Part shown: piece by piece, positions 30,797-58,824 of the stretch | Position numbering within the stretch: the first letter of the stretch is position 1 | Layout of the letters: the number at the start of each line of letters is the position of its first letter | Origin: a bacterium | GTDB taxonomy: Bacteria; Patescibacteriota; Microgenomatia; UBA8517 | Length of the DNA stretch: 64,000 nt | Direction: 5' to 3' | NCBI GenBank assembly: GCA_030583725.1 | Contig: CP129472.1 | Coordinates: 465,902-529,901 of the forward strand | The notes under the pieces: generated by a model | What the model was told of the DNA's origin: nothing | The model's input: only the letters and a program-made list of their open reading frames with translations | The model's database searches: none | Program-made: the position numbers and the translations under genes

Positions 30797-30821
30797 TTTT
30801 TTTGATTATACTACCCACATG
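30785..30821. promoter_or_regulatory. back-to-back divergent promoters for murJ and rpsT in a 22-bp intergenic gap
   Basis: Plus strand: TTGTTA (30785-30790), a 16-nt spacer, TATACT (30807-30812), then the rpsT ATG at 30819. Minus strand: TATAAT lies 8 nt before the murJ ATG. Confidence 0.4.
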
Positions 30822-31085: not shown

Positions 31086-31100
31086 TGCTAAATTGGGTAT

Positions 31101-31664: not shown

Positions 31665-31665
31665 T

Positions 31666-32331
31666 ATGGCACAAGGATGGAGGAGAGACTACTCAAGATA
31701 TAAGGGATTCTTTTTAAATATACTAAATATTTATAAATCCAAACCAACATTGATAGTATATTTGGAAATTATTCTGTCTTTAACAACAATTATAGTGTTT
31801 TCTATCTTTGCCATTAAACCTACGGTTTTGACCATAATTGAACTTAATAACGAAATAGGAAACAAAGAAAGTGTAATTGTCTCTCTAAACCAGAAGATTG
31901 GAAACCTAAAAACAGCATCTTTAGTTTTACAAAACCAGTCCTCAAGATTAAATTTAATTGATCAAGCCGTGCCAAAATCTGCAAACCTTGAAACAGTAAT
32001 TGATCAGGTGGAGAAATTGGCAGCTACCCATCAGGTAGGAATATTAAATATTGCTTCAACAGACTTGTTTCTCTCGGGTGCATCAAGCAAAAAGGCAAAG
32101 GCAGGAGATTTAAAAGCTTTACCTGGTGAAGTGAATGAGCTTAATTTAACAATTTCGGTGACAGGTAGCTATCAAGACCTTTTAAACTTTTTGAAATCTA
32201 TAGAAAACTTAAGACGTCCTATAAAAATAGATACCTTTGTCATCAATGCAACTAACTCATCTGATAGTACTAGGGTTATTGTATTGACACTTACAGGTAG
32301 ATTGCCATTTATCAATCAATCTAAAATATAA
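31666..32331 (+). CDS. pilO: PilO-like pilus assembly protein
   Basis: Bitopic protein with a coiled coil directly after pilN (2-nt gap). The PilO assignment rests on architecture and position. Confidence 0.5.
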   Translation: MAQGWRRDYSRYKGFFLNILNIYKSKPTLIVYLEIILSLTTIIVFSIFAIKPTVLTIIELNNEIGNKESVIVSLNQKIGNLKTASLVLQNQSSRLNLIDQAVPKSANLETVIDQVEKLAATHQVGILNIASTDLFLSGASSKKAKAGDLKALPGEVNELNLTISVTGSYQDLLNFLKSIENLRRPIKIDTFVINATNSSDSTRVIVLTLTGRLPFINQSKI

Positions 32332-38096: not shown

Positions 38097-39233
38097 ATAT
38101 TAGTCCCTGTTTTACTTTTTATTGGAACTTTTCTAATTTATAAAAATATCTATTCTGAACCAAGAAACTGGTATGACCACTATTTATACCTAACAAAGTC
38201 AATTATCGTGGGTAAGGTGGACATACCTGACCTGCCATCATTTTATCACGACAAGATAGAATTTGAAGGTAGAAATTACATACCTTTCCCCCCAGGTGCA
38301 TCGTTTTTACTCGTTCCTTTTGTATTACTAAAAAACGATATAACACAACAAGTAGTCTCTATTTTAATAGGGGCATTAAATGTATCCCTAATTTATTTTC
38401 TGTTAATGCATTTTACATCAAGGATAAACTCAGTACTTCTTTCATTATTCTTTGCATTTGGCACAGTAGCTTTTTGGTCATCTATCGTTGGAACAACTTG
38501 GTTTTTTGCCCATACTGTTGCCATATTCTTTATTTTAATATCATTAATATTCCATTTTAAAAAGTTGCATTTTATTTCCGGAGTTTTTTTTGCACTTGCT
38601 GCTTTGACAAGAATACCAATTATCTTAGCTGGACTATTTTTCCTTCTGGAACTGCTTAAACAAAAAAAGAAACTTGCCATATTCTTACTTGGTGCTTTTG
38701 TTTTTGTACCCATCTATTTGGGATACAACTGGATGAGGTTTGGAAATGTTTTTGAGAACGGGTACAAGCAAGTATATCAGCAATACAAGGACTCTAGCTT
38801 AAAATATTCTACTGGAAACAACTTTGGTTACTTCAATATTAAAAATGTTCCACTTCATTTATATACCTTTCTAGTTATGCCCCCTGACGTAAAAATATTA
38901 GATGGAAACATAACCGATCTTAAACCCTCGCCATTTGGAATGGGTATCATTTTTACTTCACCTTTGTTATTACTTGTCTTGTGGCCCAAGTTTAAAAATA
39001 AGATTGAAAGAAGTTCATATCTTTCTGCAATATTATGTTCATTGCCAGGTTTGTTACATTACTCTCAAGGGTGGGTGCAATTTGGCTACAGGTTTGTTTT
39101 AGATTTTATTGTTTTTCTTATGATTGTCTTAAGTCTTCGTTTTAAATTAAATATTTTTAACCTTGCCCTAATTATTATTTCTGTTATCGTTAATTTTTGG
39201 GGAGTATTATGGGCAATTCAATTAGGTTGGTAA
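38070..39233 (+). CDS. GT-C-type membrane glycosyltransferase (paralog A)
   Basis: 387 aa and polytopic. The C-terminal QFGYRFVLDF motif is shared with the next gene. Confidence 0.55.
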   Translation: MKVVFKFLHILVPVLLFIGTFLIYKNIYSEPRNWYDHYLYLTKSIIVGKVDIPDLPSFYHDKIEFEGRNYIPFPPGASFLLVPFVLLKNDITQQVVSILIGALNVSLIYFLLMHFTSRINSVLLSLFFAFGTVAFWSSIVGTTWFFAHTVAIFFILISLIFHFKKLHFISGVFFALAALTRIPIILAGLFFLLELLKQKKKLAIFLLGAFVFVPIYLGYNWMRFGNVFENGYKQVYQQYKDSSLKYSTGNNFGYFNIKNVPLHLYTFLVMPPDVKILDGNITDLKPSPFGMGIIFTSPLLLLVLWPKFKNKIERSSYLSAILCSLPGLLHYSQGWVQFGYRFVLDFIVFLMIVLSLRFKLNIFNLALIIISVIVNFWGVLWAIQLGW

Positions 39234-40396
39234 TTATGCGTCATAGAATTAAGTTGATAATATTATTATTAGCAATTGGATTATTTATAATTTATCTTTT
39301 CACCTCAGGAGGGAACACACCATTTAACCACTTTGTGTTATTGGCTGATGCTTTTTTAAAGGGTAACTTTTTTGTTGAGGGCATATACCCTTGGATTGAA
39401 AAAGCACCACTTGATGAGTATAGGTTTTTTATAGTTAATCCACCAATGCCTGCAATTTTACTAATCCCGTTTGTCAAAATATGGAGTTTAAATTTCCCAC
39501 AGCATATTTTTGCACACATAATTGGGGTTTTACTTACTGTTTCCACGTTTTATATGTCGATGATAATTAAAAAAGATTTAAGACTTGCAATTTGGTCAGC
39601 AATATTAATCGGTTTGGGAAGTATTGTCTGGTTTCTTTCAAGCGTTGGATCTGTCTGGTACTTAGGCCAAATAACAATGGCCCTATTTCTAACCTTATTA
39701 ATAAATGAGGCCTTAGTTAAAAAAAGACCTATTGTTATGGGAATCTTGTTGGGATGTGCCTATTTATCAAGAGTTCATTTGATACTAACCTTTCCAATAT
39801 TTGCTTATATACTTTGGCAAAAAAATAAGAGGTTAAATTCAATTTTTTACTTTGGTTTGACTTTTTCATTATTTTTTTTCTTTGACATGTTTTACAACTT
39901 TAGTAGATATGGTTCGTTTTTCAACCAAGGATACTTTTTAATTCCAGGAACTGAAAATGAACCATGGTTTGCAAAAGGCATTATGCATCCAAGTTATATT
40001 TTGGAGGACTTAAAAATAGCGTTTTTGGCAATGCCAAAAGTTATAAGTGAATTCCCATACATTCGTCCTTCGTGGGCAGGTATGGCAATATGGCTTACTA
40101 CTCCAGCCTTTATTTTTGCCTTTGGTGCAAAATGGAAAGATTTAACCACCAAGCTATTTAGCCTAGCGATTCTTTTAATATTTATAGTAGTGGGAATCCA
40201 CGGAGGAACGGGGTTTGCCCAATTTGGATATAGATTTGCAGTAGATTTTTATCCCTTTCTAACCTTTCTAACTATTAAGGGTGTTGCAAATTATGATGGT
40301 CCCAAGAAAATCCACTGGATACTATTGTTCGTGGGTATACTAGTCAATTTTTGGGGAGTTGTTTGGATTAATAAGTTTGGGTGGGTTGGGTGGTAA
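39197..40396 (+). CDS. GT-C-type membrane glycosyltransferase (paralog B)
   Basis: 399 aa and polytopic. FAQFGYRFAVDF parallels the paralog A motif. The first-loop sequence IEKAPLDEYRFFIVNPPMPAILLIPF is similar to FEGRNYIPFPPGASFLLVPF in paralog A. Confidence 0.55.
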   Translation: MGSIMGNSIRLVIMRHRIKLIILLLAIGLFIIYLFTSGGNTPFNHFVLLADAFLKGNFFVEGIYPWIEKAPLDEYRFFIVNPPMPAILLIPFVKIWSLNFPQHIFAHIIGVLLTVSTFYMSMIIKKDLRLAIWSAILIGLGSIVWFLSSVGSVWYLGQITMALFLTLLINEALVKKRPIVMGILLGCAYLSRVHLILTFPIFAYILWQKNKRLNSIFYFGLTFSLFFFFDMFYNFSRYGSFFNQGYFLIPGTENEPWFAKGIMHPSYILEDLKIAFLAMPKVISEFPYIRPSWAGMAIWLTTPAFIFAFGAKWKDLTTKLFSLAILLIFIVVGIHGGTGFAQFGYRFAVDFYPFLTFLTIKGVANYDGPKKIHWILLFVGILVNFWGVVWINKFGWVGW

Positions 40397-41315
40397 CCAG
40401 AAGCTCTTGTTTAAGCCAATTTTGAAACTCTATCCAAGAACCAGATGAGGGCAGAAATACATATTGTCTATCATATCTTCTGTCATCCTGAGAAACAGTA
40501 AACATCTCTTCAGGTATGGATAAGAATTTGACGCTATCCCTTGCATCGTAGACAAATTTTATCAAAGCTATTGACCTATCAAAACTAATGTCGGTTTCAA
40601 GATGAGAGAGAACTGTATTATAGACACCCCGAACAACTTTAAAATCTAAAAATACTTTCCAAGATAACATTTTTTCTTTTATGGCTGATATTACATTTTG
40701 TTGTCTTTTTTCTCTGGCAAGCTCAGATCCCTCATCCAAAACTGCATTTCTACTTCTTACAAACTTTAGGGCAGTTTCACCATCCATAATTTGTTTTCCC
40801 TCAGTAAACTGCACTGTTTCGTATCTGCATGCGTAGGTACGATCTCCGTCACACAAATCATTTTCTTTGCCAGCAATCGGGTACTTTTCATCAACAAAAG
40901 ATTTATCAACATCAACCTCAATTCCACCCACTACGTCTATTAAATCCGTAAAGAGGGTAAAGTCTACGACTAGAAAATTGTCAGGAGTAAAACCCGTAAC
41001 CGACTTGACACTTTCTCCCGCCATTTCAAAACCACCATAGTGATAAGCAGTATTTAGTTTTGCTCTAATTGCAGTTATCCATATGTCTCGAGGTAAAGAC
41101 AAGACACCAACTGATTTATTATCACTATCAAAGTGGACCACCATTATTGTATCTGTCAAGTTGGGTGCAATATGTCCCTCACCTCCTTTACCTAGAATCA
41201 AAATTGTTTGATTGTCTGTTACTTTTGGTAGACTTTTAAAGGTAAAGTATCCAGCAAGGGTAGTTGAAACTACCATAATCAACAGAAATAGGAGAACAAA
41301 TTTAAAGACCCGCAT
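40368..41315 (-). CDS. LytR-CpsA-Psr (LCP) family glycopolymer phosphotransferase
   Basis: N-terminal transmembrane segment. ILILGKGG...DTIMVVHFD....LSLPRDIWI matches the LCP core. Confidence 0.75.
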   Translation of the reverse strand: MRVFKFVLLFLLIMVVSTTLAGYFTFKSLPKVTDNQTILILGKGGEGHIAPNLTDTIMVVHFDSDNKSVGVLSLPRDIWITAIRAKLNTAYHYGGFEMAGESVKSVTGFTPDNFLVVDFTLFTDLIDVVGGIEVDVDKSFVDEKYPIAGKENDLCDGDRTYACRYETVQFTEGKQIMDGETALKFVRSRNAVLDEGSELAREKRQQNVISAIKEKMLSWKVFLDFKVVRGVYNTVLSHLETDISFDRSIALIKFVYDARDSVKFLSIPEEMFTVSQDDRRYDRQYVFLPSSGSWIEFQNWLKQELLVTTQPTQTY

Positions 41316-41353: not shown

Positions 41354-43183
41354 ATGGATAATTTAAATAAACAGCAGATTGAGGCGGTGGAATATGTAAA
41401 CGGTCCACTATTGGTACTTGCTGGCGCAGGTTCAGGAAAGACCAAAGTTTTAACACATAGGGTAATACATTTAATTAACAAAAAACTTGTTAATCCAGAA
41501 AACTGTCTCCTTTTAACTTTTACCAACAAGGCCGCCAAAGAGATGAATGAAAGGATGGGTGATATTAATTTGGGGTTTGCTGGTACTTTTCATGGTTTTA
41601 GTGTTAGGGTTCTCCGAGCTGATGGTAAAGCCATTGGGATTGATCAAAACTTTTTAATATATGATGACAATGACCAAAAGGACTTGATTAAAGATATTGT
41701 TAATAAATTAAATATCAAGGATTCTGTTAAACCTGCTTCTATTCTTTACTCTATAAGTGAAATAAAAAACCAGATGCTTACTCCAAGCAGTTATGCAGAA
41801 ATTGCTGTTGGTGATTTTGGTAGAACAGTTGCAGATGTTTACTTTGAATATGAAAAAAAGTTAAAAGAAATAAATGCATTAGATTTTGATGATTTGTTAA
41901 TAAAAACAGTTTTGCTTTTTGAAGTTCCTGAAGTTATCAATAAGTGGAGAAATAGAATTAAACAAATATTTGTTGATGAATGGCAAGACACCAATAAAAT
42001 ACAGTATAGGCTAATTAGACTGTTGGACGGCAATAGGGGAATTGTTACTGCTGTGGGTGATAGTAGTCAATCGATTTACAGTTGGCGTGGCGCAGATTAT
42101 AGAAACATAAATCTATTAATTAAAGACTATCCCCAGATAAAAGTTGTTAATTTGGAGCAAAACTACCGCAGTACACAAAACATCTTGGAAGCTGCAAATT
42201 CTGTAATATCAAAAAACACCAGTCATCCAATTTTGAAACTTTGGACAGAAAAGGGATTGGGTGAAAAGATATCGATTTACTCCGCAAGGAGCGGTTTTGA
42301 TGAAGCAGAATACCTATCTCGAGAAATTACAAGAACTGTCAAGGTCGGTAAAAACAAATACTTAGACATTGCAGTTTTATATAGAACAAATGCACAATCC
42401 CGTGTCATAGAAGAAGCCTTGTTACATTCTGGAATTCCATACACATTAATCGGCGGTGTAAGGTTCTATGACCGAAAAGAAATTAAGGACATACTTTCAT
42501 ACCTTAGGTTAATTGCCAATCCTAAGGATATAGTTTCTCAAAAAAGAGCTCTGGCATTAGGCAAGCGTAGGTTTGAAAAATTTCAAAGTATTAATGTTGA
42601 TACAGAAACACATACAACTCTTGAAATAATGGATATTATCCTTGCAAAAACTGAGTACTTAACTAAGTTCAAGGAGGTTGACCCAGAAGACGCAGAACGT
42701 TTGGAAAACATAAAGGAGTTTAGATCTGTTGCCATTGAGTTTCCAAATATATATGACTTTTTGGAAAATACAGCCCTAGTCGAAGCTGGCTCAAACAAAA
42801 ATAGTAATAAAAATGCTATTACACTAATGACTCTTCACTCAGCAAAAGGTTTAGAATTTCCAATTGTTTTTATGGTTGGAATGGAAGAAGGATTGTTTCC
42901 TCATTCAAGATCACTTTGGGAAAAAGATCAAATGGAGGAAGAAAGAAGGCTTTGTTATGTTGGAATAACCAGAGCCAAAGAAGTACTATATATGACCTAT
43001 GCCAGTAAACGACTTTTTTACGGTGAAACATCTTCTAACTCACCAAGCAGGTTTTTGTCAGACATACCTGAAGAATTGTTAAATGGTAGAATCGAAACGG
43101 TTGCAGGAAATAGTGATAATGATTCACAAATCAGCGATAATGACCTTAATTTCGATGATATACTAGATAAGTATTTAAAATGA
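41354..43183 (+). CDS. UvrD/PcrA-family ATP-dependent DNA helicase (short)
   Basis: Walker A AGAGSGKTKVLT, motifs DEWQDTN and VGDSSQSIYSWRGA. Length is 609 aa. Confidence 0.85.
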   Translation: MDNLNKQQIEAVEYVNGPLLVLAGAGSGKTKVLTHRVIHLINKKLVNPENCLLLTFTNKAAKEMNERMGDINLGFAGTFHGFSVRVLRADGKAIGIDQNFLIYDDNDQKDLIKDIVNKLNIKDSVKPASILYSISEIKNQMLTPSSYAEIAVGDFGRTVADVYFEYEKKLKEINALDFDDLLIKTVLLFEVPEVINKWRNRIKQIFVDEWQDTNKIQYRLIRLLDGNRGIVTAVGDSSQSIYSWRGADYRNINLLIKDYPQIKVVNLEQNYRSTQNILEAANSVISKNTSHPILKLWTEKGLGEKISIYSARSGFDEAEYLSREITRTVKVGKNKYLDIAVLYRTNAQSRVIEEALLHSGIPYTLIGGVRFYDRKEIKDILSYLRLIANPKDIVSQKRALALGKRRFEKFQSINVDTETHTTLEIMDIILAKTEYLTKFKEVDPEDAERLENIKEFRSVAIEFPNIYDFLENTALVEAGSNKNSNKNAITLMTLHSAKGLEFPIVFMVGMEEGLFPHSRSLWEKDQMEEERRLCYVGITRAKEVLYMTYASKRLFYGETSSNSPSRFLSDIPEELLNGRIETVAGNSDNDSQISDNDLNFDDILDKYLK

Positions 43184-44079
43184 TGGACAAGCATCCACTA
43201 CAAACCAGAGAATGGGGAGAGTTTAGGAGAGAGTGGGGGAATATTGTTGAATTTTCAAAAGCTGGACTTATTATATTTAGTAAAATTCCACACACCAATT
43301 ACACAATTGGAACATTAATACGAGGAGAAAAACCCACAAAGACAGACTTGGACACAATTCAAAAAGAATCAGAAAAGCATAATGCCATCTTTGTAAAACT
43401 TGAGCCAAATGTGTTATGGGAAAAGAAACTAGAAAGCAGTTTTCGGGAGTGGGGACTTGTTCAAGGTAAAACACTATTTACCCCAACTTCTTTTTGGATA
43501 GATCTAAAATTAAGTGAAGATGAACTATTGAAGTCATTTACAAGTAAAACTAGGTATAACATAAGGTTGGCACAAAGATATGGCATAGAAGTCAAAATAG
43601 ACAACAGTGACGAGGCTTTTGAAAAATATTTAAAATTGACAGAAGAAACAAACAAAAGACAAGGATTTTACTCACACACACCAAAATATCACAAGCTAAT
43701 GTGGAAGCACTTAAAGAGAAGTGTTGCAAACTTAATGACTGCAACATACAACAACGAGATAGTTTCTACCTGGATTTTGTTTAACAACAAGGACTTCCTT
43801 TACTATCCATATGGGGCTTCAACTAATAAATACAAAGAGATTATGGCCAATAATCTAATGATGTGGGAGGCAATAAGGTTTGGTAAAGTCAAAGGTTTAA
43901 AAACGTTTGACTTGTGGGGCAGGGAAATTGGTACAGGCTTTACTAGATTTAAGGAAGGATATAACCCAAAAGTTGTTGAGTTTGTTGGTAGTTGGGACTT
44001 GGTGGTTAATAGACCAGTATATTTCCTATATAGAATCCTTGAAAAAATTAGATGGTTTATACTTCGCCTTAAAAAATGA
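43180..44079 (+). CDS. FemAB-family peptidyl-transferase (peptidoglycan interpeptide bridge formation), half-size
   Basis: N-terminus ...TREWGEFRREWG, and the FemAB-like central region YNIRLAQRYGIEV. 4-nt overlap with the neighbouring gene. Confidence 0.6.
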   Translation: MMDKHPLQTREWGEFRREWGNIVEFSKAGLIIFSKIPHTNYTIGTLIRGEKPTKTDLDTIQKESEKHNAIFVKLEPNVLWEKKLESSFREWGLVQGKTLFTPTSFWIDLKLSEDELLKSFTSKTRYNIRLAQRYGIEVKIDNSDEAFEKYLKLTEETNKRQGFYSHTPKYHKLMWKHLKRSVANLMTATYNNEIVSTWILFNNKDFLYYPYGASTNKYKEIMANNLMMWEAIRFGKVKGLKTFDLWGREIGTGFTRFKEGYNPKVVEFVGSWDLVVNRPVYFLYRILEKIRWFILRLKK

Positions 44080-44978
44080 TTGCTAAAAAACAATATCTTC
44101 AAGATATAAGACAATCAGAAAACTATGCAAGATACTTAGAATCACAAGGATGGATTGTAGAGAGAATAAACAATATTAACTATTTTATTAAAAAGATTCC
44201 ATTTTTAGGCTCAGTTTTGAAGATCCAAAGGCCTAAAAAGATTGATTTTGGGGTAATAACAAACATAGAAAAAAAATATAGAGTATTTCAAACAATAATT
44301 GAGCCCGATTTAGCCTTCACCAACAGCTTCGTTTCTTACCATAGTTTATTACTACAAAATAGATTTAGATTGTCAAAAAATCCATTTTTACCTTCAAAAA
44401 CTATACACATAGATTTAATACAAAGTAGAGACCAGATTTTCCGTAATTTTTCGAAAGATTGTAAATACTCAATCAGAAAAGGGGAGGGGTTAGAGATTAA
44501 AAAATGCTCAACCCCCGATGAAATTAAATCTTTTCATAATGCATGGAAAAAGTCTGCAAACTTTAACCGGTATGTACCAAGTATCGAGACGCTCGTAAAT
44601 TTAAACCGAAGTTTCCCACAATCCAAGTCTCTATTCCTTACGTCGCACAATAAATCTGGCAGTATTATAGGGGGAGCGATTTTCACGGTCTCTTTACACG
44701 GTGTATCTAACTATATCACACATTATTGGCAAGGTTTTACTAATAAGGAAGGACGCACTTCCCTCTCCCAGTACTCTCTTCTCTATCAAGGTATACTATG
44801 GGGTAAAAAGATGGGTTGTAAAGTTTTTGATTTTGAAGGTATATATGATGAGCGCTTCCCAAATAAATCATGGCTCGGCTTTACCCACTTTAAAAAACAG
44901 TTTGGTGGAAAAGAAGTCCTCTACCCTGGATGTTATAGCCGATTTCGGATATATAACTTATTTCGGTTTTGGAAATAA
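44076..44978 (+). CDS. FemAB-family paralog
   Basis: Second 300-aa protein with the same architecture, including YSIRKGEGLEIK, as an acyl-transferase-fold tandem partner. Confidence 0.5.
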   Translation: MIAKKQYLQDIRQSENYARYLESQGWIVERINNINYFIKKIPFLGSVLKIQRPKKIDFGVITNIEKKYRVFQTIIEPDLAFTNSFVSYHSLLLQNRFRLSKNPFLPSKTIHIDLIQSRDQIFRNFSKDCKYSIRKGEGLEIKKCSTPDEIKSFHNAWKKSANFNRYVPSIETLVNLNRSFPQSKSLFLTSHNKSGSIIGGAIFTVSLHGVSNYITHYWQGFTNKEGRTSLSQYSLLYQGILWGKKMGCKVFDFEGIYDERFPNKSWLGFTHFKKQFGGKEVLYPGCYSRFRIYNLFRFWK

Positions 44979-50182: not shown

Positions 50183-51610
50183 ATGGACAAAAAATATTAC
50201 ATTACATGCGCAATCCCATACACCAATAGCAGACCCCACGTGGGACATGCCTTAGAATTTGTACAAGGTGACATTTTGGCTAGATACCATAGGCTCTTAG
50301 GAGAAAATGTTATTTTGCTTTCAGGTGGGGATGAAAATGCGTTAAAGAACGTTCAAGCAGCCGAAAATGCTGGTGTTCCCGTACAAGAATTTGTAGATAA
50401 AAACAACAAACTCTTTGAGGAACTCGTCACAAACCTAAACTGTAAATTTGATATATGGCAAAAAGGAAGTGATAAAGAAAAACACTTCCCTTCTTCTCAA
50501 AAACTTTGGCAATTATGCGACAAGGCCGGAGATATATATGAAAAAGAATATTCAGGTCTTTATTGTGTTGGTTGCGAAACATTCTACGAAAAGGAGGAGT
50601 TAAATGAAAACGGGGAATGTTTTGAACATATTGGTAAAAAACTTGAACAAGTAAAAGAAAAAAACTATTTCTTCAAGCTGTCAAAATACCAAGACAAGCT
50701 AATTAAACTAATTAAGAGTGATGAATTAAGAATTACTCCAATGGAGAGAAAAAACGAAGTTCTATCATTTCTTAAAGAACCGCTTCAAGACATTTCAATC
50801 TCAAGAAGCAATGAAAGGGCAAAAAATTGGGGTGTTCCTGTGCCAGACGATCCAAATCAAAAAATTTATGTTTGGTTTGATGCTTTGAACTTGTATCAAT
50901 CAGGTATCGGTTTTGGCTGGGATGAAGAAAAGTATAATAAATATTGGCCAGCAGATTGCCATGTAATAGGAAAAGGTATATCACGGTTTCACGCTGTCTA
51001 TTGGCCTGCGTTTTTAATGTCTGCAAATCTAGAATTACCAAGGGAGCTATTTATCCACGGCTATTTTACAATAAACGGACAAAAGATGAGTAAAACTTTA
51101 GGAAATGTAATTGACCCAAATGAAATGATTAAAAAATATGGCGCTGACGCACTGAGATATTATTTCTTGGCCAAATTCTCACCGTTTACAGATGGGGATT
51201 TCTCAGAAGAGAAGTTAAAAGATGTCTACAATGCCGATCTTGCAAATGGTTTAGGTAATCTAGTCTCTAGAGTTGCCAAACTTTGTGAAACTTCAAACTT
51301 TAGCTTTACATCAAAAGAAACAAATATCTACCCTGAAGTGTCAAAAGCTATTGAGGAATATAGGTTTGACGTTGCAATGAAATTTATTTTGGAAAAAGTA
51401 AGCCAAATAGATCAAGATATTAATAAAAGTGAGGTTTGGAAATTAAAAGGAATAGAACTTAAAAAGAAACTGCAATACTACCTAGAAGAGATTGCAGAAA
51501 TTGCATTAAACTTAAAACCATTTTTACCTGAAACTGTTGATAAAATTGTCAAAGTTTTTGGTGGTCCAGTAATTAAGATGCAGGAACCGTTATTCCCCAG
51601 AATCAAATAA
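50183..51610 (+). CDS. metG: methionyl-tRNA synthetase (short, catalytic plus anticodon-binding domains only)
   Basis: PYTNSRPHVGHALE is the HIGH-class motif. KMSKTLGNVIDP is the KMSKS motif. Confidence 0.85.
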   Translation: MDKKYYITCAIPYTNSRPHVGHALEFVQGDILARYHRLLGENVILLSGGDENALKNVQAAENAGVPVQEFVDKNNKLFEELVTNLNCKFDIWQKGSDKEKHFPSSQKLWQLCDKAGDIYEKEYSGLYCVGCETFYEKEELNENGECFEHIGKKLEQVKEKNYFFKLSKYQDKLIKLIKSDELRITPMERKNEVLSFLKEPLQDISISRSNERAKNWGVPVPDDPNQKIYVWFDALNLYQSGIGFGWDEEKYNKYWPADCHVIGKGISRFHAVYWPAFLMSANLELPRELFIHGYFTINGQKMSKTLGNVIDPNEMIKKYGADALRYYFLAKFSPFTDGDFSEEKLKDVYNADLANGLGNLVSRVAKLCETSNFSFTSKETNIYPEVSKAIEEYRFDVAMKFILEKVSQIDQDINKSEVWKLKGIELKKKLQYYLEEIAEIALNLKPFLPETVDKIVKVFGGPVIKMQEPLFPRIK

Positions 51611-51612
51611 CA

Positions 51613-53106
51613 ATGTTTAGAAAATGGATCATCAAAAATGAAAAAAAGGTCTTGAGATTTTTTGAGATTCTACCAGGATTTTTTTCTTGGAATATGATAC
51701 TTCTTCCCTACTGGGGAATATTTGTGTTTCCAAATGCTGTTGCATATTTTGTCCTTCTTTTTAACGTCTATTGGTTTTATCAGTCTTTTTTGATTGCTGT
51801 CACTTCTTTTATCTCACACACCAAAATTCAGGCATATATAAAGTATGACTGGGTAAGTGACTTGAAATCATTTCCAGACTGGGAAAAAGTACACAATGTA
51901 ATTATCATTCCTACTTACAAGGAACCTTTGCATATTCTAGAGAGGACTATAGATTCCTTGATTAAACAGACACTACCAACACAGATGTTAAGTGTTGTTA
52001 TCGCGATGGAACAAAAAGAAGAAAAAAAGGAGCGTGACTTAAAATTTAATACTCTTTACTCAAAGTTTGGTAAAAATTTTAAAAATTTTGTGCAGACAGT
52101 ACACAAATTAAAACATGGTGAAGTTATAGGAAAGGCATCAAATGAACGACACGCGGCTATTTGGTTCAAAAAACACCATCTGGGCAAAGACAAACTAGAT
52201 ATCAATTACTTAACAGTGACAAGTTGTGACGCAGATCACAAATATCATCCCAACCATTTTGCTTGTCTGTCATTCAAGTTTTTAGATTCTCCAACTAGGT
52301 ATAGACAATTTTGGCAACCGGCTGTAATGTTTTACAATAATATCTGGGAGTTGCCAGCAATCACAAGAGTTCCAAACACATTTGGTTCAATTTGGAATTT
52401 ATCACAACTTCCAAGAAAAGATAGGCTCATTAACGCCCAAAACTATTCCCTCTCATTTAAACTTCTGGACGAAGTTGGTTATTGGGATGCAAACAGAATT
52501 CCAGAGGATTGGGGTATTTTTTTCAAGGCTTACTACAAAGTTAAGGGAGGACTTGAGGTTGAACCAATTTACTTACCACTTCATGCTGATGCGGCACAGT
52601 CCACGTCTCATTGGAAAACCATGAAAAATCAATATGAACAATACAGAAGATGGGCATGGGGAACATCAGATGACTCTTGGATTATCAAAAACTATTTAGT
52701 GGATAGAGATATTCCCTTTTGGGATAAAACAACTAGGCTTATGCATGTTATTTGGTCACATTTTATGTGGCCTGTTAACTGGTTTATTATAACCATCGGA
52801 TTGACGTTACCGACACTAATTAATCCTGCTTTTGGTAGAACAGCACTTGGTTTTATGGTTCCAAAGCTCTCTTCCATAATACTAACCCTTTCACTTAGTT
52901 TTTTCTTTGTATTGTTTTTTGTTGATAATATTTATAAACCGAAAAGGCCTGAGGGGTTGTCAGTTTGGCGCTCTATTCTTGCTCCCTTTGAATTTATTTT
53001 GATGCCTATTGCGGGTTTCTTCTTTTCAGCTCTTCCAGGTCTTGACGCACACACAAGACTAATGCTTGGAAAATATATTGAGTACAAAGTAACAGAGAAG
53101 GTATAA
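51613..53106 (+). CDS. membrane-embedded processive GT2 glycosyltransferase (cellulose/chitin/hyaluronan-synthase-like)
   Basis: DxD motif (TSCDADHK), QYRRW, and transmembrane helices at both ends. Confidence 0.7.
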   Translation: MFRKWIIKNEKKVLRFFEILPGFFSWNMILLPYWGIFVFPNAVAYFVLLFNVYWFYQSFLIAVTSFISHTKIQAYIKYDWVSDLKSFPDWEKVHNVIIIPTYKEPLHILERTIDSLIKQTLPTQMLSVVIAMEQKEEKKERDLKFNTLYSKFGKNFKNFVQTVHKLKHGEVIGKASNERHAAIWFKKHHLGKDKLDINYLTVTSCDADHKYHPNHFACLSFKFLDSPTRYRQFWQPAVMFYNNIWELPAITRVPNTFGSIWNLSQLPRKDRLINAQNYSLSFKLLDEVGYWDANRIPEDWGIFFKAYYKVKGGLEVEPIYLPLHADAAQSTSHWKTMKNQYEQYRRWAWGTSDDSWIIKNYLVDRDIPFWDKTTRLMHVIWSHFMWPVNWFIITIGLTLPTLINPAFGRTALGFMVPKLSSIILTLSLSFFFVLFFVDNIYKPKRPEGLSVWRSILAPFEFILMPIAGFFFSALPGLDAHTRLMLGKYIEYKVTEKV

Positions 53107-53108
53107 AA

Positions 53109-54062
53109 CTAGTTTTTGTAATATTCAATTGTGTTCTTGAGGCCTTCTTCTAAATTAACTTTTGGTTCCCAACCTAAAATTTCTTTTGCCTTTGTTATGT
53201 CGGGGCATCTTTGCATTGGGTCGTCAGGTCTAAATTCTTTACTATGAATAACCTCCGAAGTAGAATTTGTTAATTCAATAACTTTTTTTGACAGATCACT
53301 GATTGTAAATTCGTCAGGATTGCCTAAATTAAATATTTCTCCTTTGGTGTCCTCGAAAAACATTGCCTTCTTAATACCATCAACTAAGTCGGTTACATAA
53401 CAAAAGGATCTTGTCTGGCTTCCATCACCATCAATCTTGATTTCTTCATTCTTCAATGCCCAGTTTATGAAATTACTTACCACCCTTCCGTCGTCTCTTT
53501 GCATATTTGGTCCATATGTATTAAATATTCTAACTATCCTTGCATCCAGATCATACTTATGTAAATAAACATAGACAGCAGTTTCTGCAAATCTTTTACT
53601 TTCATCGTAACAAGATCTTGGCCCAAATGTGTTTACATTCCCCCAATATGTTTCTTTTTGTGGATGCTCTAATGGGTCTCCATATATTTCAGACGTCGAG
53701 GCAATTAAAACTTTAGATTTTTGTTTACTCGCTAGATTCAAAATATTTAGAGTTCCTTGAGAATTAACCAAAAGTGTTTCTTCGGGGTGATTCTGATAGT
53801 CAATTGGTGAGGCCGGTGAGGCAAGATGGAAAATATAGTTAACATTTTCTAATTCTTCAATATTCTCTAAATGCTGACATATGTCAGCTTCAACAAATTC
53901 AAAGTTTGGATTTGAAAGCAGGTCTTCTATGTTTTTTTTGCTACCAGTAATTAGATTGTCAAAACAGGTAACTTGATACCCGTCTTCAAGTAGAGATTTA
54001 CATAGGTGTGACCCAATAAACCCGCACCCCCCAGTGACCAAGACCTTTTGTATATTATCCAT
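53109..54062 (-). CDS. UDP-glucuronate decarboxylase (UDP-xylose synthase, SDR family)
   Basis: VLVTGGCGFIGSHL and the NLITGSKKNIEDL...NFEFVEADI pattern, plus a YxxxK-type motif (YDESK), as in UXS/ArnA decarboxylases. Confidence 0.8.
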   Translation of the reverse strand: MDNIQKVLVTGGCGFIGSHLCKSLLEDGYQVTCFDNLITGSKKNIEDLLSNPNFEFVEADICQHLENIEELENVNYIFHLASPASPIDYQNHPEETLLVNSQGTLNILNLASKQKSKVLIASTSEIYGDPLEHPQKETYWGNVNTFGPRSCYDESKRFAETAVYVYLHKYDLDARIVRIFNTYGPNMQRDDGRVVSNFINWALKNEEIKIDGDGSQTRSFCYVTDLVDGIKKAMFFEDTKGEIFNLGNPDEFTISDLSKKVIELTNSTSEVIHSKEFRPDDPMQRCPDITKAKEILGWEPKVNLEEGLKNTIEYYKN

Positions 54063-54108
54063 ATATATTTGATTTTATAGTTTCTCTATTCAAGTTTGCT
54101 ACTTCGTA

Positions 54109-55668
54109 GTGAATCCTTCACCACCTGTAACTAAAATGTTTTGCATATGTTATGATTATAACAGTATGGCGATGTGGAACAAAATAATCCTACCGCTTTG
54201 GAACAAACTAATATCAATTATTGATACTCCCCTTTGGCTTGAGATTTTCTTTGTAGTTATTCTACTACTTAGAATCCCTTCATTTTTTGAACCATACTAT
54301 TACGGTGATGAAATGATTTACCTAACTCTTGGAGAAGGCGTTAGACAAGGAGTTGAGCTATACTCTGGTCTGCACGACAACAAACCACCACTACTCTATT
54401 TGACCGCTGCCATCTCAGGAAATCTTTTCGTTTTTAAAGTATTACTTGCTGGTTTTAACCTTCTTTCTATTTATCTATTTTGGAAATTAGTCAAAAACTT
54501 ATTCCCTCAAAAGGAAAGGCTTCACAAAATAGGTACAATTATATTTGGTATCTTCTCAACCCTGCCACTTCTTGAGGGTAATATAGCCAATGCAGAAAAC
54601 TTCATGATGGTACCAATATTACTTGCCTTTATATATGTATTTACTAAAAAGGACAACTTTAGGAATATGTTTTTAATAGGAATTCTCTTTTCCCTAGCTT
54701 CACTTTATAAAATTGTAGCTGCTTTTGACATAATGGGTTTAATAGCATTCTGGCTAATATTCACCAAAAAGGGTGACTTTATAAACTTATTTAAGAAAAT
54801 AATATACCTGTCTCTTGGTTTTTTGGTCCCAATACTTTTAACCTTTGCTTGGTACTACTTTAAAGGTGCATTTTCAGAATACCTAGTAGCTGCCTACTTA
54901 CAAAATTTTGGCTACTTAAGTAGTTGGAAAAGATCATCTGAAGAAATACCTTTTCTAGTTAAAAATGGTCCACTACTTATTCGGTTTGGATTAATGATTT
55001 TAGGATTTGTAGTTCTTTGGTTTTTAAGGAATAAACTTTCTAAGCAATTTGTTTTCGTTTCAAGTTGGTTGTTGGCAACTCTTTTTGCAGTATCTTTGTC
55101 TGAACGACCTTACCCACACTATTTTTTACAATCACTTGCCCCAACAACTATTCTTTTGGCCATGCTTTTTACTCTTAAAAGTATTGAGCAAAGTTTTACT
55201 ATTATCCCACTTACTTTGGCTTTTTTTGTTCCTTACTACTTTAAGTTTTGGTATTATCCTACAATTCCCTATTACGAAAGGTTTATAAAATTTGCAACCA
55301 TGCAAACTGAGAGGACCGAATATTTTAATCAATTTTCGAGTGAAGTTTCTAATAATTATAAGATTGCAGATTTTCTAACCAAATCAGCCTCTAAGGATGA
55401 TCGGGTCTTTGTCTGGAGCGGTGACTCAGCTGCCATATATTCACTATCAAGACGGCTTCCACCAACAAAATATGTAGCTGATTACCACTTTATGGACTTT
55501 TCAACCGAAGAAAGAACAATACTAGAACTCACAAACGCTATGCCTAAATTTGTAGTAATTACCCCAAACTCAAAACCGTTTAAATCTCTAGATGTGTTTT
55601 TGGACCAAAACTATTATATAATCTCTGAAGTTGGTTCATCACAAATATGGCTCTACTTGAACAAATAA
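54109..55668 (+). CDS. GT39/GT83-type GT-C glycosyltransferase (PMT/ArnT-like)
   Basis: Polytopic. YYGDEMIYL, a DE motif, sits in the first loop. The probable true start is the internal Met near 54169 (MAMWNK). Confidence 0.65.
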   Translation: MNPSPPVTKMFCICYDYNSMAMWNKIILPLWNKLISIIDTPLWLEIFFVVILLLRIPSFFEPYYYGDEMIYLTLGEGVRQGVELYSGLHDNKPPLLYLTAAISGNLFVFKVLLAGFNLLSIYLFWKLVKNLFPQKERLHKIGTIIFGIFSTLPLLEGNIANAENFMMVPILLAFIYVFTKKDNFRNMFLIGILFSLASLYKIVAAFDIMGLIAFWLIFTKKGDFINLFKKIIYLSLGFLVPILLTFAWYYFKGAFSEYLVAAYLQNFGYLSSWKRSSEEIPFLVKNGPLLIRFGLMILGFVVLWFLRNKLSKQFVFVSSWLLATLFAVSLSERPYPHYFLQSLAPTTILLAMLFTLKSIEQSFTIIPLTLAFFVPYYFKFWYYPTIPYYERFIKFATMQTERTEYFNQFSSEVSNNYKIADFLTKSASKDDRVFVWSGDSAAIYSLSRRLPPTKYVADYHFMDFSTEERTILELTNAMPKFVVITPNSKPFKSLDVFLDQNYYIISEVGSSQIWLYLNK

Positions 55669-56006
55669 AAGAAACTTCTGTCCCATTGAAGTCTCTTTTC
55701 GTGACTTCTTTCATTGTAAATTGTGTATTTATTCTTATTAGTCTAGTTTCGACTGTTATTCTTCCCCCCGAGATACCTCTCTTTTTTGGATTACCTAAAA
55801 GTACTAGCCAATTAGCTGCTAACTATATGATATTAGTCCCCTCGCTAATTTCAACTTTTTTGGTAACGGCAAACTTTATAATAGCATTAAAAGTTAGTGG
55901 CCAATATATTAAAAAGATATTAGCCTTTACCTCTGTTTCAGTTACTATTCTAAATGTGATTGCTACCTCCAAAATAGTATTTTTAGTTGGATCTTTTGCA
56001 AATTAA
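55647..56006 (+). CDS. small 4-transmembrane membrane protein (GtrA/SMR-like, possible lipid-linked sugar flippase subunit)
   Basis: 119 aa with four hydrophobic helices. It lies between the GT-C gene and the WecA-like gene. Assignment is by architecture only. Confidence 0.3.
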   Translation: MALLEQIKETSVPLKSLFVTSFIVNCVFILISLVSTVILPPEIPLFFGLPKSTSQLAANYMILVPSLISTFLVTANFIIALKVSGQYIKKILAFTSVSVTILNVIATSKIVFLVGSFAN

Positions 56007-57032
56007 ATGGGTACAATTAATCTTTTTTTTACACCCCTACTCACGGCTTTTTTAATATCAGCCTTAGTTACTCCTGTTGTAATTATATATGCCAAAAAAC
56101 TTGGTATTATGGATGACCCAAGAAAAACTAACCATCCAAAAGTAATCCACACGAAGCCAATCCCAAGAGGTGGGGGTATTCCAGTTTTTATCGCAATATT
56201 TATTGCTTCACTTATCTTTATTCCTATAGACAAACATATTGTCTCGATTTTAATCGGAGCGGGAATCGTTTTTGTGATGGGTCATCTTGATGATAAATAT
56301 AATTTAAATCCATATCTTAGATTGGCTTTGGGATTTTTGGCAGCCTACATTCCTGTATCTCAAGGTATTGGAATTAGTTTTTTAACTAACCCTTTTGGTG
56401 GCATTATTGACCTGTCTAACCCACTTTTTTCTAATGTATTCGCCCTTCTTTGGATTGTTTTTATGATGAATGTGGTCAATATGGGCGCCAAAGGAATTGA
56501 TGGCCAATTGTCAGGTGTAACAGTAATTTCTGCTTTAACCATAACCGCACTCTCGTTTTCCTACTTTACCGATACAACCCAATGGCCTGTTATTCTTTTA
56601 ACCGGCATCACCGCAGGTGCTTTTTTGGGTTTTTTTCTTTGGCACAAGTTTCCACAAAAAATTATGCCAGGGTATGGTGGTTCAACTCTGGCGGGATATA
56701 TGTTAGCCATAGCATCAATACTGTCAACAACTAAGGTGGGAACATTGATAGTAGTTTTAGGTGTACCCCTTATTGATACAGGGTACACAATAATGCGCAG
56801 AATAATGTCAGGAAAGTCTCCTGTTTGGGGTGACAGAGGGCATCTACACCACAGACTCCTAGACTATGGTTTAAGCAAGAAACAGGTTTCACAGGTTTAC
56901 TGGTCACTCACAGCGATACTTGGAATTCTGGCTCTCAATTTGAATAGCACATACAAGTTGTATACAATCATTGGTGTAATACTGGTTGTGGGCGGTTTAA
57001 TATTATTTTTAACCAGAAAGAAGAATGACTAA
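56007..57032 (+). CDS. polyprenyl-phosphate N-acetylhexosamine-1-phosphate transferase (WecA/TagO/MraY family)
   Basis: Motifs HLDDKYNL and NVVNMGAKGIDGQLSG (NxxNxxDGIDGL). Ten or more transmembrane helices. Confidence 0.75.
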   Translation: MGTINLFFTPLLTAFLISALVTPVVIIYAKKLGIMDDPRKTNHPKVIHTKPIPRGGGIPVFIAIFIASLIFIPIDKHIVSILIGAGIVFVMGHLDDKYNLNPYLRLALGFLAAYIPVSQGIGISFLTNPFGGIIDLSNPLFSNVFALLWIVFMMNVVNMGAKGIDGQLSGVTVISALTITALSFSYFTDTTQWPVILLTGITAGAFLGFFLWHKFPQKIMPGYGGSTLAGYMLAIASILSTTKVGTLIVVLGVPLIDTGYTIMRRIMSGKSPVWGDRGHLHHRLLDYGLSKKQVSQVYWSLTAILGILALNLNSTYKLYTIIGVILVVGGLILFLTRKKND

Positions 57033-57984
57033 CTTAATTTGGCAGGCGATGAACACAGCTAAAGAGGCTATAAGAGTGGCGAGGCCTATCCATTGGGTCA
57101 AAAATTTTGCGCTTTTTGCAGCTATTTTTTTAACAGGCACATTGTTTGAAAAGGGCTTGTTGGCAAATGTGATTATCTCATTTATCTCTTTCTCACTAGC
57201 CACCTCCGCAACATATATTTTTAACGACATAATGGATGCTAAAAGAGATGTTCTTCATCCTCACAAAAAGAATCGGCCAATAGCATCAGGAAAGTTACCT
57301 CTTAATTTGGCAATTTTTGAAATGCTAATCCTACTGTTTGTTTCTTTGGTTATAGCTGAAGCATTAAACCATTTGTTTTTTGTACTTTTGGTTTTCTACT
57401 TAAGTATGCAGGTCTTATACAGCTTAGGTTTGAAAAATATTCACGTAATTGATATTTTAATTATTGCCACGGGTTTTATTTTAAGGGTTTATGCAGGAGC
57501 CCTGGTAATAGATGCACATCTTTCCGTCTGGTTTTTGCTTTGTGTAGTCTCAGCCTCACTATTTTTGGCGGCAGGTAAAAGAAGGTCTGAAATAAATTTA
57601 TCCAATGCAGAAGATGGTAGAACACGCTTAAGTCTTTCTAAGTACTCGAGAGAGCTTCTAAACAGCTATGTAACAATGTTTGGTAATGCCACATGGATGA
57701 GTTGGGGTTTGTACACATTTTATGAAAGTCCAAGAGCTTCTCTGGACTTTTGGCTTTTATTGGCCGAGGTTTCAAAAGCAACAACTGTTAACAAGTTGAT
57801 GATGGCAACAATCCCTTTAGTAATTTTTGGCATTATGAGATACCAAGTTCTAATTTTTGAAGGTAAGTCAGAAGCTCCAGAAAAACTTTTCTTGTCAGAC
57901 AAGGCCCTCATCATTTCAATTAGTCTTTGGGTAGGATTTGTTTACTTCATCCTCTATTCAGGAGTATCAGTTAGGGGAATTTAG
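57025..57984 (+). CDS. UbiA-family prenyltransferase resembling decaprenyl-phosphate phosphoribosyltransferase (DPPR synthase)
   Basis: NDIMDAKRD matches the NDxxDxxxD motif. Polytopic and about 320 aa, the typical size of DPPR synthases. Confidence 0.65.
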   Translation: MTNLIWQAMNTAKEAIRVARPIHWVKNFALFAAIFLTGTLFEKGLLANVIISFISFSLATSATYIFNDIMDAKRDVLHPHKKNRPIASGKLPLNLAIFEMLILLFVSLVIAEALNHLFFVLLVFYLSMQVLYSLGLKNIHVIDILIIATGFILRVYAGALVIDAHLSVWFLLCVVSASLFLAAGKRRSEINLSNAEDGRTRLSLSKYSRELLNSYVTMFGNATWMSWGLYTFYESPRASLDFWLLLAEVSKATTVNKLMMATIPLVIFGIMRYQVLIFEGKSEAPEKLFLSDKALIISISLWVGFVYFILYSGVSVRGI

Positions 57985-58824
57985 CTTTGTCACAAATTCT
58001 GCACTAACCCAGCCTGCTTGCGATTCGCCTTCAGTGCCTACAAATTCTATTTTGTACCAAATTCCATTTTCATCTATTTCTAAAATTTCATACTCCTCAT
58101 CTGGCTTAACTTGTCCAATTTCTGGAAATCCTGTATTAGCTCCACTTCTGACCCTTAAAAATCCTATATCTGTTTGGTTAACCTTGATTTTACCTAGGCC
58201 CTCTATGTCTGTACTACCAGACAATTCTTCAATTATTTGTGACTCAACAACGTCTGATTTTGCAAGCTTAACTGAGGCTGTTAATTTGTATCCTGCATAG
58301 ACCCTAATTGGTAAAGACTTTTCAAGATATTTATCAGACGAAACAATTAAGTTGTGGTCCCCAGCTGGCATTTTTACACGTAGGGGTGTGTAACCAACAA
58401 TTTTATTGTCAACAATAACTTGTGCATTATCAGGTACAGACACAACCGTGATATATGACTCTGATCCTCCCAGTTTCTCAAATGAAACAACTACCCCACT
58501 TGAAAATTCCTCAACGTCTTTAAATGTTCTTTTGACAATTGTTCTTACTCCTGAAGTTAAGTTTATTTTGGTTTCATAGTCATCTAAAATAATCCCAGTA
58601 TCAATAGGTTTAACCCTTAAGGTTATTTCACCTGCACTTAAGTTTGCTTCGTATGGCGTTCTTCCCACCTCTTGTTCATTTATGTAAACAATAGACTCAG
58701 GATCAGCTTCAACTAGAATTCCTGACTCTTGATCTTTAAATAGACCCAAAAAAGACAACCCCCCATACCCAACAACTAATATACCTAAAAGCGCAAGGAA
58801 TATGCTTATCAATTTCTTTTTCAT
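57967..58824 (-). CDS. secreted/anchored protein with two PEGA domains and C-terminal SH3b domain
   Basis: Signal/anchor sequence and two PEGA-like repeats (VYINEQEVGRTPYEANLSAGEITLRV and VIVDNKIVGYTPLRVKMPAGDHNLIV). The C-terminus LRVRSGANTGFPEIGQVKPDEEYEILEIDENGIWYKIEF..GWVSAEFV is SH3b-like. Confidence 0.6.
   Translation of the reverse strand: MKKKLISIFLALLGILVVGYGGLSFLGLFKDQESGILVEADPESIVYINEQEVGRTPYEANLSAGEITLRVKPIDTGIILDDYETKINLTSGVRTIVKRTFKDVEEFSSGVVVSFEKLGGSESYITVVSVPDNAQVIVDNKIVGYTPLRVKMPAGDHNLIVSSDKYLEKSLPIRVYAGYKLTASVKLAKSDVVESQIIEELSGSTDIEGLGKIKVNQTDIGFLRVRSGANTGFPEIGQVKPDEEYEILEIDENGIWYKIEFVGTEGESQAGWVSAEFVTKLNSPN

Follow-up and report, generated by a model that had tools for sequence, protein, structure and literature searches.

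A conserved envelope-glycan locus of Candidate Phyla Radiation bacteria with a candidate pathway for lipid-linked pentofuranose

What does a bacterium of the Candidate Phyla Radiation (CPR, Patescibacteria) make with a UbiA-family protein, a glycosyltransferase of the GT-C fold and a WecA-like initiator encoded side by side? The question is raised by positions 51613–57984 of the 64-kb stretch of contig CP129472.1 analysed here (hereafter the window; GC content 35%), where six open reading frames (ORFs) lie between the first start codon (51613) and the last stop codon (57984). A preliminary description had recognised five of these genes and had read them as a cluster supplying UDP-xylose and polyprenyl-phosphate-linked ribose or arabinose to a wall polymer. 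With slightly better than even confidence, we regard the locus as an envelope-glycan module of CPR bacteria (Microgenomates and Saccharibacteria) in which a lipid-linked pentofuranose is made and added outside the membrane. Its core is an operon of the GT-C, a small membrane protein, a WecA/TagO-like polyprenyl-phosphate HexNAc initiator (PNPT) and a polyprenyl phosphoribose synthase (PPPRS), preceded by a synthase-like family 2 glycosyltransferase (GT2).

The best-supported identity of the locus is that of the UbiA-family protein (57049–57984, + strand; 319-aa ORF open from 57025), whose predicted activity, judged by sequence, is that of an Rv3806c-type polyprenyl-phosphate 5-phosphoribosyltransferase. 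It aligns over its full length (residues 11–304) with Mycobacterium tuberculosis Rv3806c (8j8j; E = 3e-37; 94 of 277 residues identical, 34%), and the second-best match in the Protein Data Bank (PDB), an archaeal DGGGP synthase, reaches only E = 2.5e-4. The protein passes the NCBIfam model NF008978, named 'decaprenyl-phosphate phosphoribosyltransferase' (228.6 bits, cut-off 207), falls narrowly below the cut-off of NF008977 (225.4 vs 234 bits) and clearly below that of the actinobacterial equivalog NF008976 (165.8 vs 474 bits). The models of heme O synthase, 4-hydroxybenzoate prenyltransferase (UbiA), MqnP and chlorophyll synthase give at most 50 bits, and an assignment as MenA, UbiA or heme O synthase was rejected on this difference (≤50 vs 228.6 bits). 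The DPPR-synthase-like call of the preliminary description is thus borne out, and the grouping with menaquinone or heme O synthases that it had named as its own refutation is not what the scores give.

The residues of Rv3806c that bind the Mg, pyrophosphate, ribose and 5-phosphate of phosphoribosyl pyrophosphate (PRPP) are listed in the paper describing its structure (PMC10994848). Ten of these 11 residues are identical in the window protein, namely R22, K28, Y70, N73, D77, K87, R90, Q135, Y138 and K143 in Rv3806c numbering (R20, K26, Y64, N67, D71, K81, R84, Q129, Y132 and K137 here). The eleventh, Y157, is a phenylalanine (F151), a variant that occurs in some mycobacteria too (PMC10994848). 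Across an alignment of 132 sequences from CPR, Mycobacterium, Lactococcus, Chondrinema and Rhizobium, the contact positions are invariant except for Q129 (128/132), K137 (131/132) and F151 (129 F, 3 Y). The phosphoribose contacts are not conserved in the prenyl-transferring UbiA enzymes (PMC10994848).

The window belongs to a Candidatus Woesebacteria (Microgenomates) genome; the best genome matches of its UbiA gene are metagenome-assembled genomes (MAGs) of Woesebacteria and Microgenomates, with 57–78% protein identity, and the Woesebacteria homologues already bear the NCBI name 'decaprenyl-phosphate phosphoribosyltransferase'. Enzymes of this type operate in three-component systems, which unite an Rv3806c-like polyprenyl phosphoribose synthase and its HAD phosphatase, a small flippase and a GT136-family GT-C, and which add α-pentofuranoses outside the cytoplasm (Kelly et al., 2024; PMC11127046). 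Ribofuranose is the default product; xylofuranose needs an epimerase of the short-chain dehydrogenase/reductase (SDR) family and arabinofuranose needs DprE1/E2 (PMC11127046). These systems are widespread among bacteria (PMC11127046), and we found UbiA homologues on 96 plasmid records, among them plasmids of Rhizobium, Lactococcus, Bacteroidota and haloarchaea, so that the earlier premise that polyprenyl-phosphoribose outside the Actinobacteria is remarkable in itself has to be given up.

Does the UbiA gene form a functional unit with its neighbours? The GT-C gene (54166–55668, +; 519-aa ORF open from a GTG at 54109), the gene of the small membrane protein (55647–56006, +; 119 aa), the PNPT gene (56007–57032, +; 341 aa) and the UbiA gene lie on one strand and overlap or abut: the small-protein ORF overlaps the GT-C stop by 22 nt, and the UbiA ORF, taken from 57025, overlaps the PNPT stop by 8 nt. 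The likely starts of the GT-C and UbiA genes are those of the gene calls on an identical contig, obtained from a public sequencing run. Together the four genes make up one tightly packed operon. The gene of the membrane-integrated GT2 (51613–53106, +; 497 aa), hereafter GT2x, starts 2 nt past the end of the methionyl-tRNA synthetase (MetRS) gene (MetRS to GT2x start, window 50183–51613), and a UDP-xylose synthase (UXS) gene (53109–54062; 317 aa) lies on the − strand, opposite to the other five ORFs. A scan for promoters and terminators between 49400 and 59600 gave counts at or below the shuffled expectation.

We then compared 80 loci with a UbiA homologue, taking in up to 10 kb of flanking sequence. 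PNPT and UbiA are direct neighbours in 79 of them, and 71 have an uninterrupted run of GT-C, small protein, PNPT and UbiA; because of these two counts the clustering of the locus genes is not due to chance. In 58 of the 67 loci with sufficient upstream sequence, GT2x lies upstream, mostly directly after MetRS, and where both genes are present they are adjacent in 45 of 56 loci, which suggests co-transcription of GT2x with the housekeeping MetRS. Median identities are 69% for GT2x, the most conserved gene of the locus, 62% for both PNPT and UbiA, and 46% for MetRS. The gene order is kept in Woesebacteria, Blackburnbacteria, Gottesmanbacteria, Daviesbacteria and Saccharibacteria, even where UbiA identity drops to 39–47%. 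Genes for MetRS, RmuC, a Trp-repressor-like protein, HSP20 and an M23 peptidase are syntenic around the locus as well, and the slot between GT2x and GT-C admits UXS and many unrelated genes (PIN, NUDIX, a retroelement), as would be expected if the enzymes were merely part of a syntenic housekeeping backbone from MetRS to HSP20 without forming a unit. We find this highly improbable, considering that the four core genes share one strand with overlapping or abutting ends, that the core enzymes are all predicted to use polyprenyl phosphate, free or glycosylated, that the small protein is fused to PNPT in one lineage and that the order is retained over five CPR lineages at such low identity.

Many of the loci compared (L002, L006, L009, L013, L015, L017 and others, with accessions beginning CAZ or CAY) come from MAG records labelled 'uncultured Gammaproteobacteria bacterium' or, in one case, 'Alphaproteobacteria bacterium'. 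They hold a Woesebacteria-type locus with 57–75% identity and full synteny, and their taxonomic labels look wrong.

For the GT-C, hereafter GT-C1, the evidence lies in the predicted fold. The AlphaFold2 model, built from 47 homologues, has a pLDDT of 88 and a pTM of 0.87, and its top 13 Foldseek matches among PDB structures are all GT-C enzymes; the first is ArnT (5f15; E = 7e-7, TM-score 0.53), and STT3, DPY19, ALG9, AftA, ALG3, AftB, PIG-U and AftD are found further down. Two stretches of loop 1, Y65-G66-D67-E68 and D90-N91-K92-P93-P94, are invariant in the homologues and are located after the first modelled transmembrane (TM) helix, and it is in this loop region that the catalytic acidic residues of GT-C enzymes reside (PMC11127046). 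The protein also carries a C-terminal extracytoplasmic α/β domain. In Pfam, GT-C1 has only a sub-threshold PTPS_related match (21.6 vs 26.4 bits) and no PMT or PMT_2 match above cut-off, a close homologue reaching 25.6 bits with PMT_2, just under the cut-off of 26.1; a sequence search against PDB chains gave no match. The modelled structure identifies the protein as a GT-C enzyme that is ArnT-like at the level of the fold only. Membership in the ArnT family (GT83) at sequence level was rejected on an hhalign probability of 0.3% for ArnT, and membership in PMT/GT39 on the missing Pfam PMT match and on the position of the Pmt1/2 structures outside the top PDB matches. From the earlier label 'GT39/ArnT-like GT-C' we therefore retain the ArnT-like GT-C fold and drop GT39, PMT and PMT_2 being below cut-off; that the enzyme might be a generic PMT, which the same description had considered as a refutation, is contradicted for the eukaryote type by ArnT ranking first by fold.

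A second GT-C family (~440 aa, PMT_2 above cut-off) occurs in 34 loci, and 21 of its copies stem from the slot between GT2x and GT-C1. In the Gottesmanbacteria and Saccharibacteria loci this second family is the only GT-C and stands at the GT-C position.

The PNPT and its small partner were assigned by sequence. The PNPT scores 80.4 bits with Pfam Glycos_transf_4 (cut-off 27), is 28% identical to Escherichia coli WecA (E = 7e-18), the alignment including the GIDG and DRxH(L/I)HH motifs, and matches the WecA model TIGR02380 with 98 bits (E = 6e-28), below its cut-off of 326; the MraY model gives 42 bits only. The WecA-like initiator of the preliminary description is therefore confirmed at family level, and by analogy with its family the enzyme would make a polyprenyl-P-HexNAc primer. 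The 119-aa protein, with about three predicted TM helices, stands directly upstream of PNPT in 79 of the 80 loci and bears the motif LPPxxPLFYG..G..QL...N. In one Saccharibacteria locus (L080, MAG CAZOPS010000001.1, 8009–9514) it is fused in frame to the PNPT N-terminus (HMM E = 8e-16), a single case in which an assembly or frameshift artefact is possible. It has no Pfam match, and its profile found no match among PDB chains. A role as a GtrA or ArnE flippase was rejected on the profile comparisons, which gave probabilities of 0.6% against Rhizobium GtrA and 0.2% against ArnE. The preliminary description had overlooked this protein; the five gene calls that it did make are upheld, at the level of family or fold.

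GT2x has no Pfam match above cut-off (Glycos_transf_2, 16.2 vs 23.3 bits) and no match in a sequence search against PDB chains. Its AlphaFold2 model (pLDDT 70.6) shows two N-terminal TM helices, a confident GT-A core domain and a C-terminal TM bundle, the last being of low confidence (pLDDT <50 at residues 393–424 and 459–497). The best Foldseek matches are cellulose synthase BcsA (4p00; E = 3.7e-7) and the hyaluronan synthases (HAS) XlHAS1 and CvHAS, with TM-scores of 0.41–0.44, and the minimal, non-processive PcManGT is also among them. The residues D206xD208, E298-D299 and Q343xxR346-W347 are invariant in an alignment of 50 homologues. The predicted BcsA/HAS-like fold and the DxD, ED and QxxRW motifs support the GT2 synthase that the preliminary description had called, its processivity being a putative trait, and the model identifies GT2x as a cellulose/hyaluronan-synthase-like GT2 of a distinct, unnamed family. 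A polyprenyl-phosphate sugar synthase of the ArnC/GtrB type was rejected, GT2x showing no similarity to ArnC. The family is compact, with 2294 clusters at 50% identity (E ≤ 1e-3) among 1.84 billion, and the few named members that were checked are unclassified 'bacterium' MAGs or belong to the CPR lineage Dojkabacteria.

The 317-aa SDR next to GT2x is, by sequence, a true UDP-xylose synthase (UDP-glucuronate decarboxylase): its alignment with human UXS1 (4gll, 2b69; E = 1e-95) has 154 identical residues in 304 (51%), while the matches to ArnA and GalE-type enzymes trail by 50 orders of magnitude and those to RmlB types are also far weaker. Its place in the cluster is another matter. A UXS homologue was found in only 19 of the 80 loci, and 16 of these 19 copies lie in the slot between GT2x and GT-C1; UXS is thus an accessory occupant of a variable slot and not part of the core, so that of the earlier call the identity stands and the membership does not. 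A function as lipid-pentose epimerase, comparable to ORF13 of Citrobacter youngae O2, is unlikely given the 51% identity to a true UXS. The slot itself is an insertion hot spot (for instance in L025, L038, L045, L046, L058 and L067), whose cargo ranges from PIN toxins and hydrolases (NUDIX, MazG) to RDD proteins, additional GT2 and Bac_transf genes and a diversity-generating retroelement (RVT_1 with bAvd).

Taken together, these assignments lead to the following mechanism. At the cytoplasmic face, the UbiA enzyme, whose active site is conserved, would transfer 5-phosphoribose from PRPP to polyprenyl phosphate; a phosphatase encoded elsewhere would remove the 5-phosphate, and the lipid-linked ribofuranose would be flipped to the outer face. 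There the ArnT-like GT-C, for which the fold and the operon linkage are seen and the donor is suggested by that linkage, would add the pentofuranose to an acceptor. The pentofuranose would by default be ribofuranose, because no epimerase is linked to the locus. Most likely, the acceptor would be a glycan primed on polyprenyl phosphate by the WecA-like PNPT and/or the GT2 polymer, and the LytR-CpsA-Psr (LCP) ligase of the window (40368–41315, −; Pfam LytR_cpsA_psr, E = 1.9e-36), about 13 kb away, may then fix this glycan to peptidoglycan. Where UXS is present, UDP-xylose may serve as an optional extra building block.

Several observations weigh against this mechanism. The reference systems keep the genes of phosphatase and flippase adjacent to PPPRS. 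We used phosphatase, GtrA, FAD and SDR proteins from three plasmid-borne PPPRS loci (described below) as probes on the window plus the 80 CPR loci (1.416 Mb in total), together with Pfam scans of every sizeable ORF of the window: the Lactococcus HAD-IB phosphatase probe and the GtrA probe found no match in this search space, no GtrA/SMR-type flippase was seen there, and the Pfam scans revealed no PAP2 or linked HAD protein in the window or within 10 kb of the 80 loci. The sole HAD gene of the window (14899–15513) is 40 kb from the locus. Furthermore, its fusion to PNPT in one lineage makes the small protein look like a subunit of PNPT rather than a flippase. As for the GT-C, the 0.3% hhalign probability was obtained with the 47-sequence GT-C1 profile against E. 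coli ArnT; two GT-C candidates of reference systems, both compared in full, showed no sequence relation to GT-C1 in their membrane domains, and in a third (Chondrinema) the C-terminal domain of about 90 aa alone matches GT-C1 (probability 79%). In the Daviesbacteria loci, GT2x, small protein, PNPT and UbiA are present and a GT-C is missing. The literature search yielded no biochemical or compositional data for any CPR organism, and none linking CPR with DPPRS (the decaprenyl-phosphate phosphoribosyltransferase) or DprE1.

Finally, the donor could be another polyprenyl-phosphate sugar. It might be a polyprenyl-phosphate hexose, or, in an Arn-like route, UDP-xylose from UXS loaded on polyprenyl phosphate by a GT2, the PPPRS product being used elsewhere and the operon linkage reflecting a shared pool of polyprenyl phosphate. 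ArnT as the closest fold, the resemblance of UXS-like SDR, GT2, small membrane protein and GT-C to the arn operon, the GT87–PMT fusion of the window, which also needs a polyprenyl-phosphate sugar, and the Daviesbacteria loci, which keep the remaining genes without the GT-C, would all fit such a donor. We nevertheless judge it unlikely: UXS is absent from 61 of the 80 loci, GT2x has a synthase-type architecture with QxxRW and no similarity to ArnC, the small protein is unlike ArnE, and GT-C genes flank PPPRS in unrelated phyla too.

The pentofuranose as ribofuranose has a second competitor in arabinose, which the preliminary description had left as an option. According to this alternative, the locus would serve a mycobacterial-type arabinan, the ribose being epimerised by DprE1/DprE2 encoded elsewhere and the GT-C building an arabinofuranosyl polymer or side chains on the WecA-primed glycan. 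The presence of PNPT, GT2, PPPRS, GT-C and LCP in one window does parallel the arabinogalactan machinery, the structural matches of GT-C1 include AftA, AftB and AftD, and PPPRS loci of Bacteroidota and Rhizobium carry pairs of FAD oxidoreductase and SDR. Yet in the 1.416 Mb a DprE1-like probe found nothing and a DprE2-like probe found one weak, unrelated match, whereas the PPPRS probes matched in 81 of 81 loci (the window included). Pfam scans showed no FAD_binding_4-type protein in the window or the variable slot, and no DprE1/E2-type enzyme, PAP2 or PRPP synthase in the window, the preliminary description having proposed to look for the epimerases and the synthase. Moreover, all arabinofuranose systems surveyed by Kelly et al. 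hold their epimerases inside the cluster (PMC11127046), and ArnT beats the Aft enzymes as structural match of GT-C1. Arabinose is therefore not indicated, and we consider a mycobacterial-type arabinan improbable; the negative result for epimerases covers the window and the 80 loci, and genes for them elsewhere in the genome are possible, which is a further point to be held against the ribofuranose mechanism.

Is the acceptor a glycan or a protein? Next to UbiA, and convergent with it, lies the gene of a membrane-anchored surface protein with two PEGA repeats and an SH3_3 domain (57967–58824, −; Pfam PEGA E = 1.8e-16, SH3_3 E = 6.3e-11). It is the convergent UbiA neighbour in 64 of the 80 loci, and it is possibly an associated wall-binding or acceptor protein. 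The pentofuranose might accordingly end up on this protein or on type IV pilins, as in the case of TfpW of Pseudomonas aeruginosa. A PPPRS-dependent GT-C glycosylates the P. aeruginosa pilin, as cited in PMC11127046, PilN and PilO pilus assembly genes are present in the window, and pilin glycosylation in Saccharibacteria has been predicted in the literature. We hold a protein acceptor to be distinctly unlikely, since the pilus genes are about 20 kb off without conserved linkage to the locus, and the tight coupling to PNPT and a synthase-like GT2 favours a glycan.

The distinct pentose-containing wall polymer envisaged by the preliminary description is plausible as a prediction. A bolder version, in our opinion very unlikely as a whole, is that of a near-essential, CPR-wide wall glycopolymer without described counterpart, which PNPT and its small subunit would prime, the CPR-specific GT2 would extend and the GT-C would ribofuranosylate with a donor derived from PRPP. 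In that version, given the lack of a linked phosphatase, the GT-C might even transfer ribose-5-phosphate; this would give an anionic, teichoic-acid-like decoration with a donor coming directly from PRPP.

Whatever its exact product, the locus is a strong candidate for specifying a core envelope structure, because genomes of about 0.8 Mb keep it beside MetRS and conserve its enzymes better than MetRS itself. The CPR make up a very large, mostly uncultured share of bacterial diversity and live attached to host cells, and the locus offers a concrete handle on their surface glycans, on which the literature search gave nothing. The ribofuranose mechanism predicts a PRPP-dependent lipid-linked pentose and a pentofuranose in the wall for relatives such as the Saccharibacteria, a MAG of which carries a homologous locus, and it would bring lipid-linked, PRPP-derived pentose chemistry to a further superphylum, with the genes arranged in a new way.

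Other envelope genes are found in the remainder of the window. An 801-aa protein (35691–38096, −) combines an N-terminal GT87 domain, PimE-like and thus of the polyprenyl-phosphate-mannose transferase type, with a C-terminal PMT/PMT_2/PMT_4TMC part; such a double GT-C polypeptide implies that the genome encodes a second lipid-linked sugar pathway. Two ORFs without Pfam match (387 and 399 aa; regions 38070–41315 and 43180–44978) stand beside the LCP ligase, and two FemAB-family peptidyl transferases near it mark a second patch of wall genes about 10 kb from the locus. Further away (4555–7302, −, and 29090–32331), a sortase lies beside a 687-aa ORF without Pfam match, which may be its substrate, and genes for MurJ and PilN/PilO are present, MurJ and PilN/PilO being consistent with a monoderm-type envelope with type IV pili. 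Finally, the Rfam scan found tRNA-Cys, one match embedded in a helicase gene and nothing else. The latter (RF03531, 'n00280', a Clostridioides difficile sRNA 'included into helicase gene'; 42913–43008, +, 67.5 bits) falls inside the UvrD helicase ORF at 41354–43183 and is probably conserved helicase coding sequence, not an sRNA.

How does the locus compare with known systems? The chemistry and the NCBI name of the DPPRS are known; the coupling to PNPT, the absence of linked phosphatase, flippase and epimerase, the CPR-specific GT2 and the small partner protein are new. With arnBCADTEF of E. coli the locus shares an ArnT-like GT-C, ArnT being the best structural match, a UXS-like decarboxylase nearby and, as predicted for the CPR, a lipid-linked pentose-type donor that is transferred outside the membrane. 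Nevertheless, the CPR proteins have no profile-level similarity to ArnT, ArnC or ArnE, and donor synthesis would be PRPP-based in the CPR, unlike the UDP-sugar-based arn route.

The mycobacterial set for arabinogalactan comprises Rv3805c (AftB), Rv3806c, Rv3807c and Rv3808c (GlfT2), together with DprE1/E2, WecA and Lcp1. Common to the synthesis of this polymer and its decaprenyl-phosphate arabinose donor and to the CPR genome is the combination of GT-C, GT2, PNPT initiator and LCP ligase. On the other hand, no DprE1/E2 and no PAP2 phosphatase were found near the CPR locus, its GT2 is of the membrane-embedded synthase type and not GlfT2-like, and its GT-C is nearer to ArnT than to the Aft/Emb enzymes.

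The PPPRS of Lactococcus plasmid pLLF27D, Chondrinema litorale and Rhizobium leguminosarum plasmid pR132503 are 31–34% identical to the window PPPRS, with nearly all the catalytic and PRPP-contact residues checked being conserved, and there too GT-C genes are adjacent to PPPRS. The order is a hypothetical 533-aa protein, DPPRS, HAD-IB phosphatase and GtrA in Lactococcus, where an LCP ligase is nearby as in the CPR genome; GT39 genes, DPPRS, FAD oxidoreductase, SDR and GT39 in Chondrinema; and a HAD-UbiA fusion, GtrA, FAD oxidoreductase, SDR and two hypothetical proteins in Rhizobium. The HAD-IB phosphatase and GtrA that are adjacent in these loci, and the FAD/SDR epimerases of two of them, have no counterpart in the CPR loci.

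The last comparison is with Citrobacter youngae O1/O2, in which ORF15 is a PPPRS-PRP protein, ORF14 the flippase and ORF12 the GT-C of family GT136 (PMC11127046). In both cases a PPPRS with NDxxDxxxD and K-R-x-x-E motifs stands beside a GT-C whose closest solved relative is ArnT. The CPR locus differs in lacking a fused or adjacent HAD phosphatase and a recognisable small flippase, and its GT-C has no detectable sequence relation to the GT-Cs of other PPPRS loci except for the C-terminal domain of about 90 aa. Instead, the CPR genes form an operon with PNPT and a 3-TM protein behind a synthase-like GT2, and the locus looks like a highly conserved core element rather than a serotype-diversifying accessory one.

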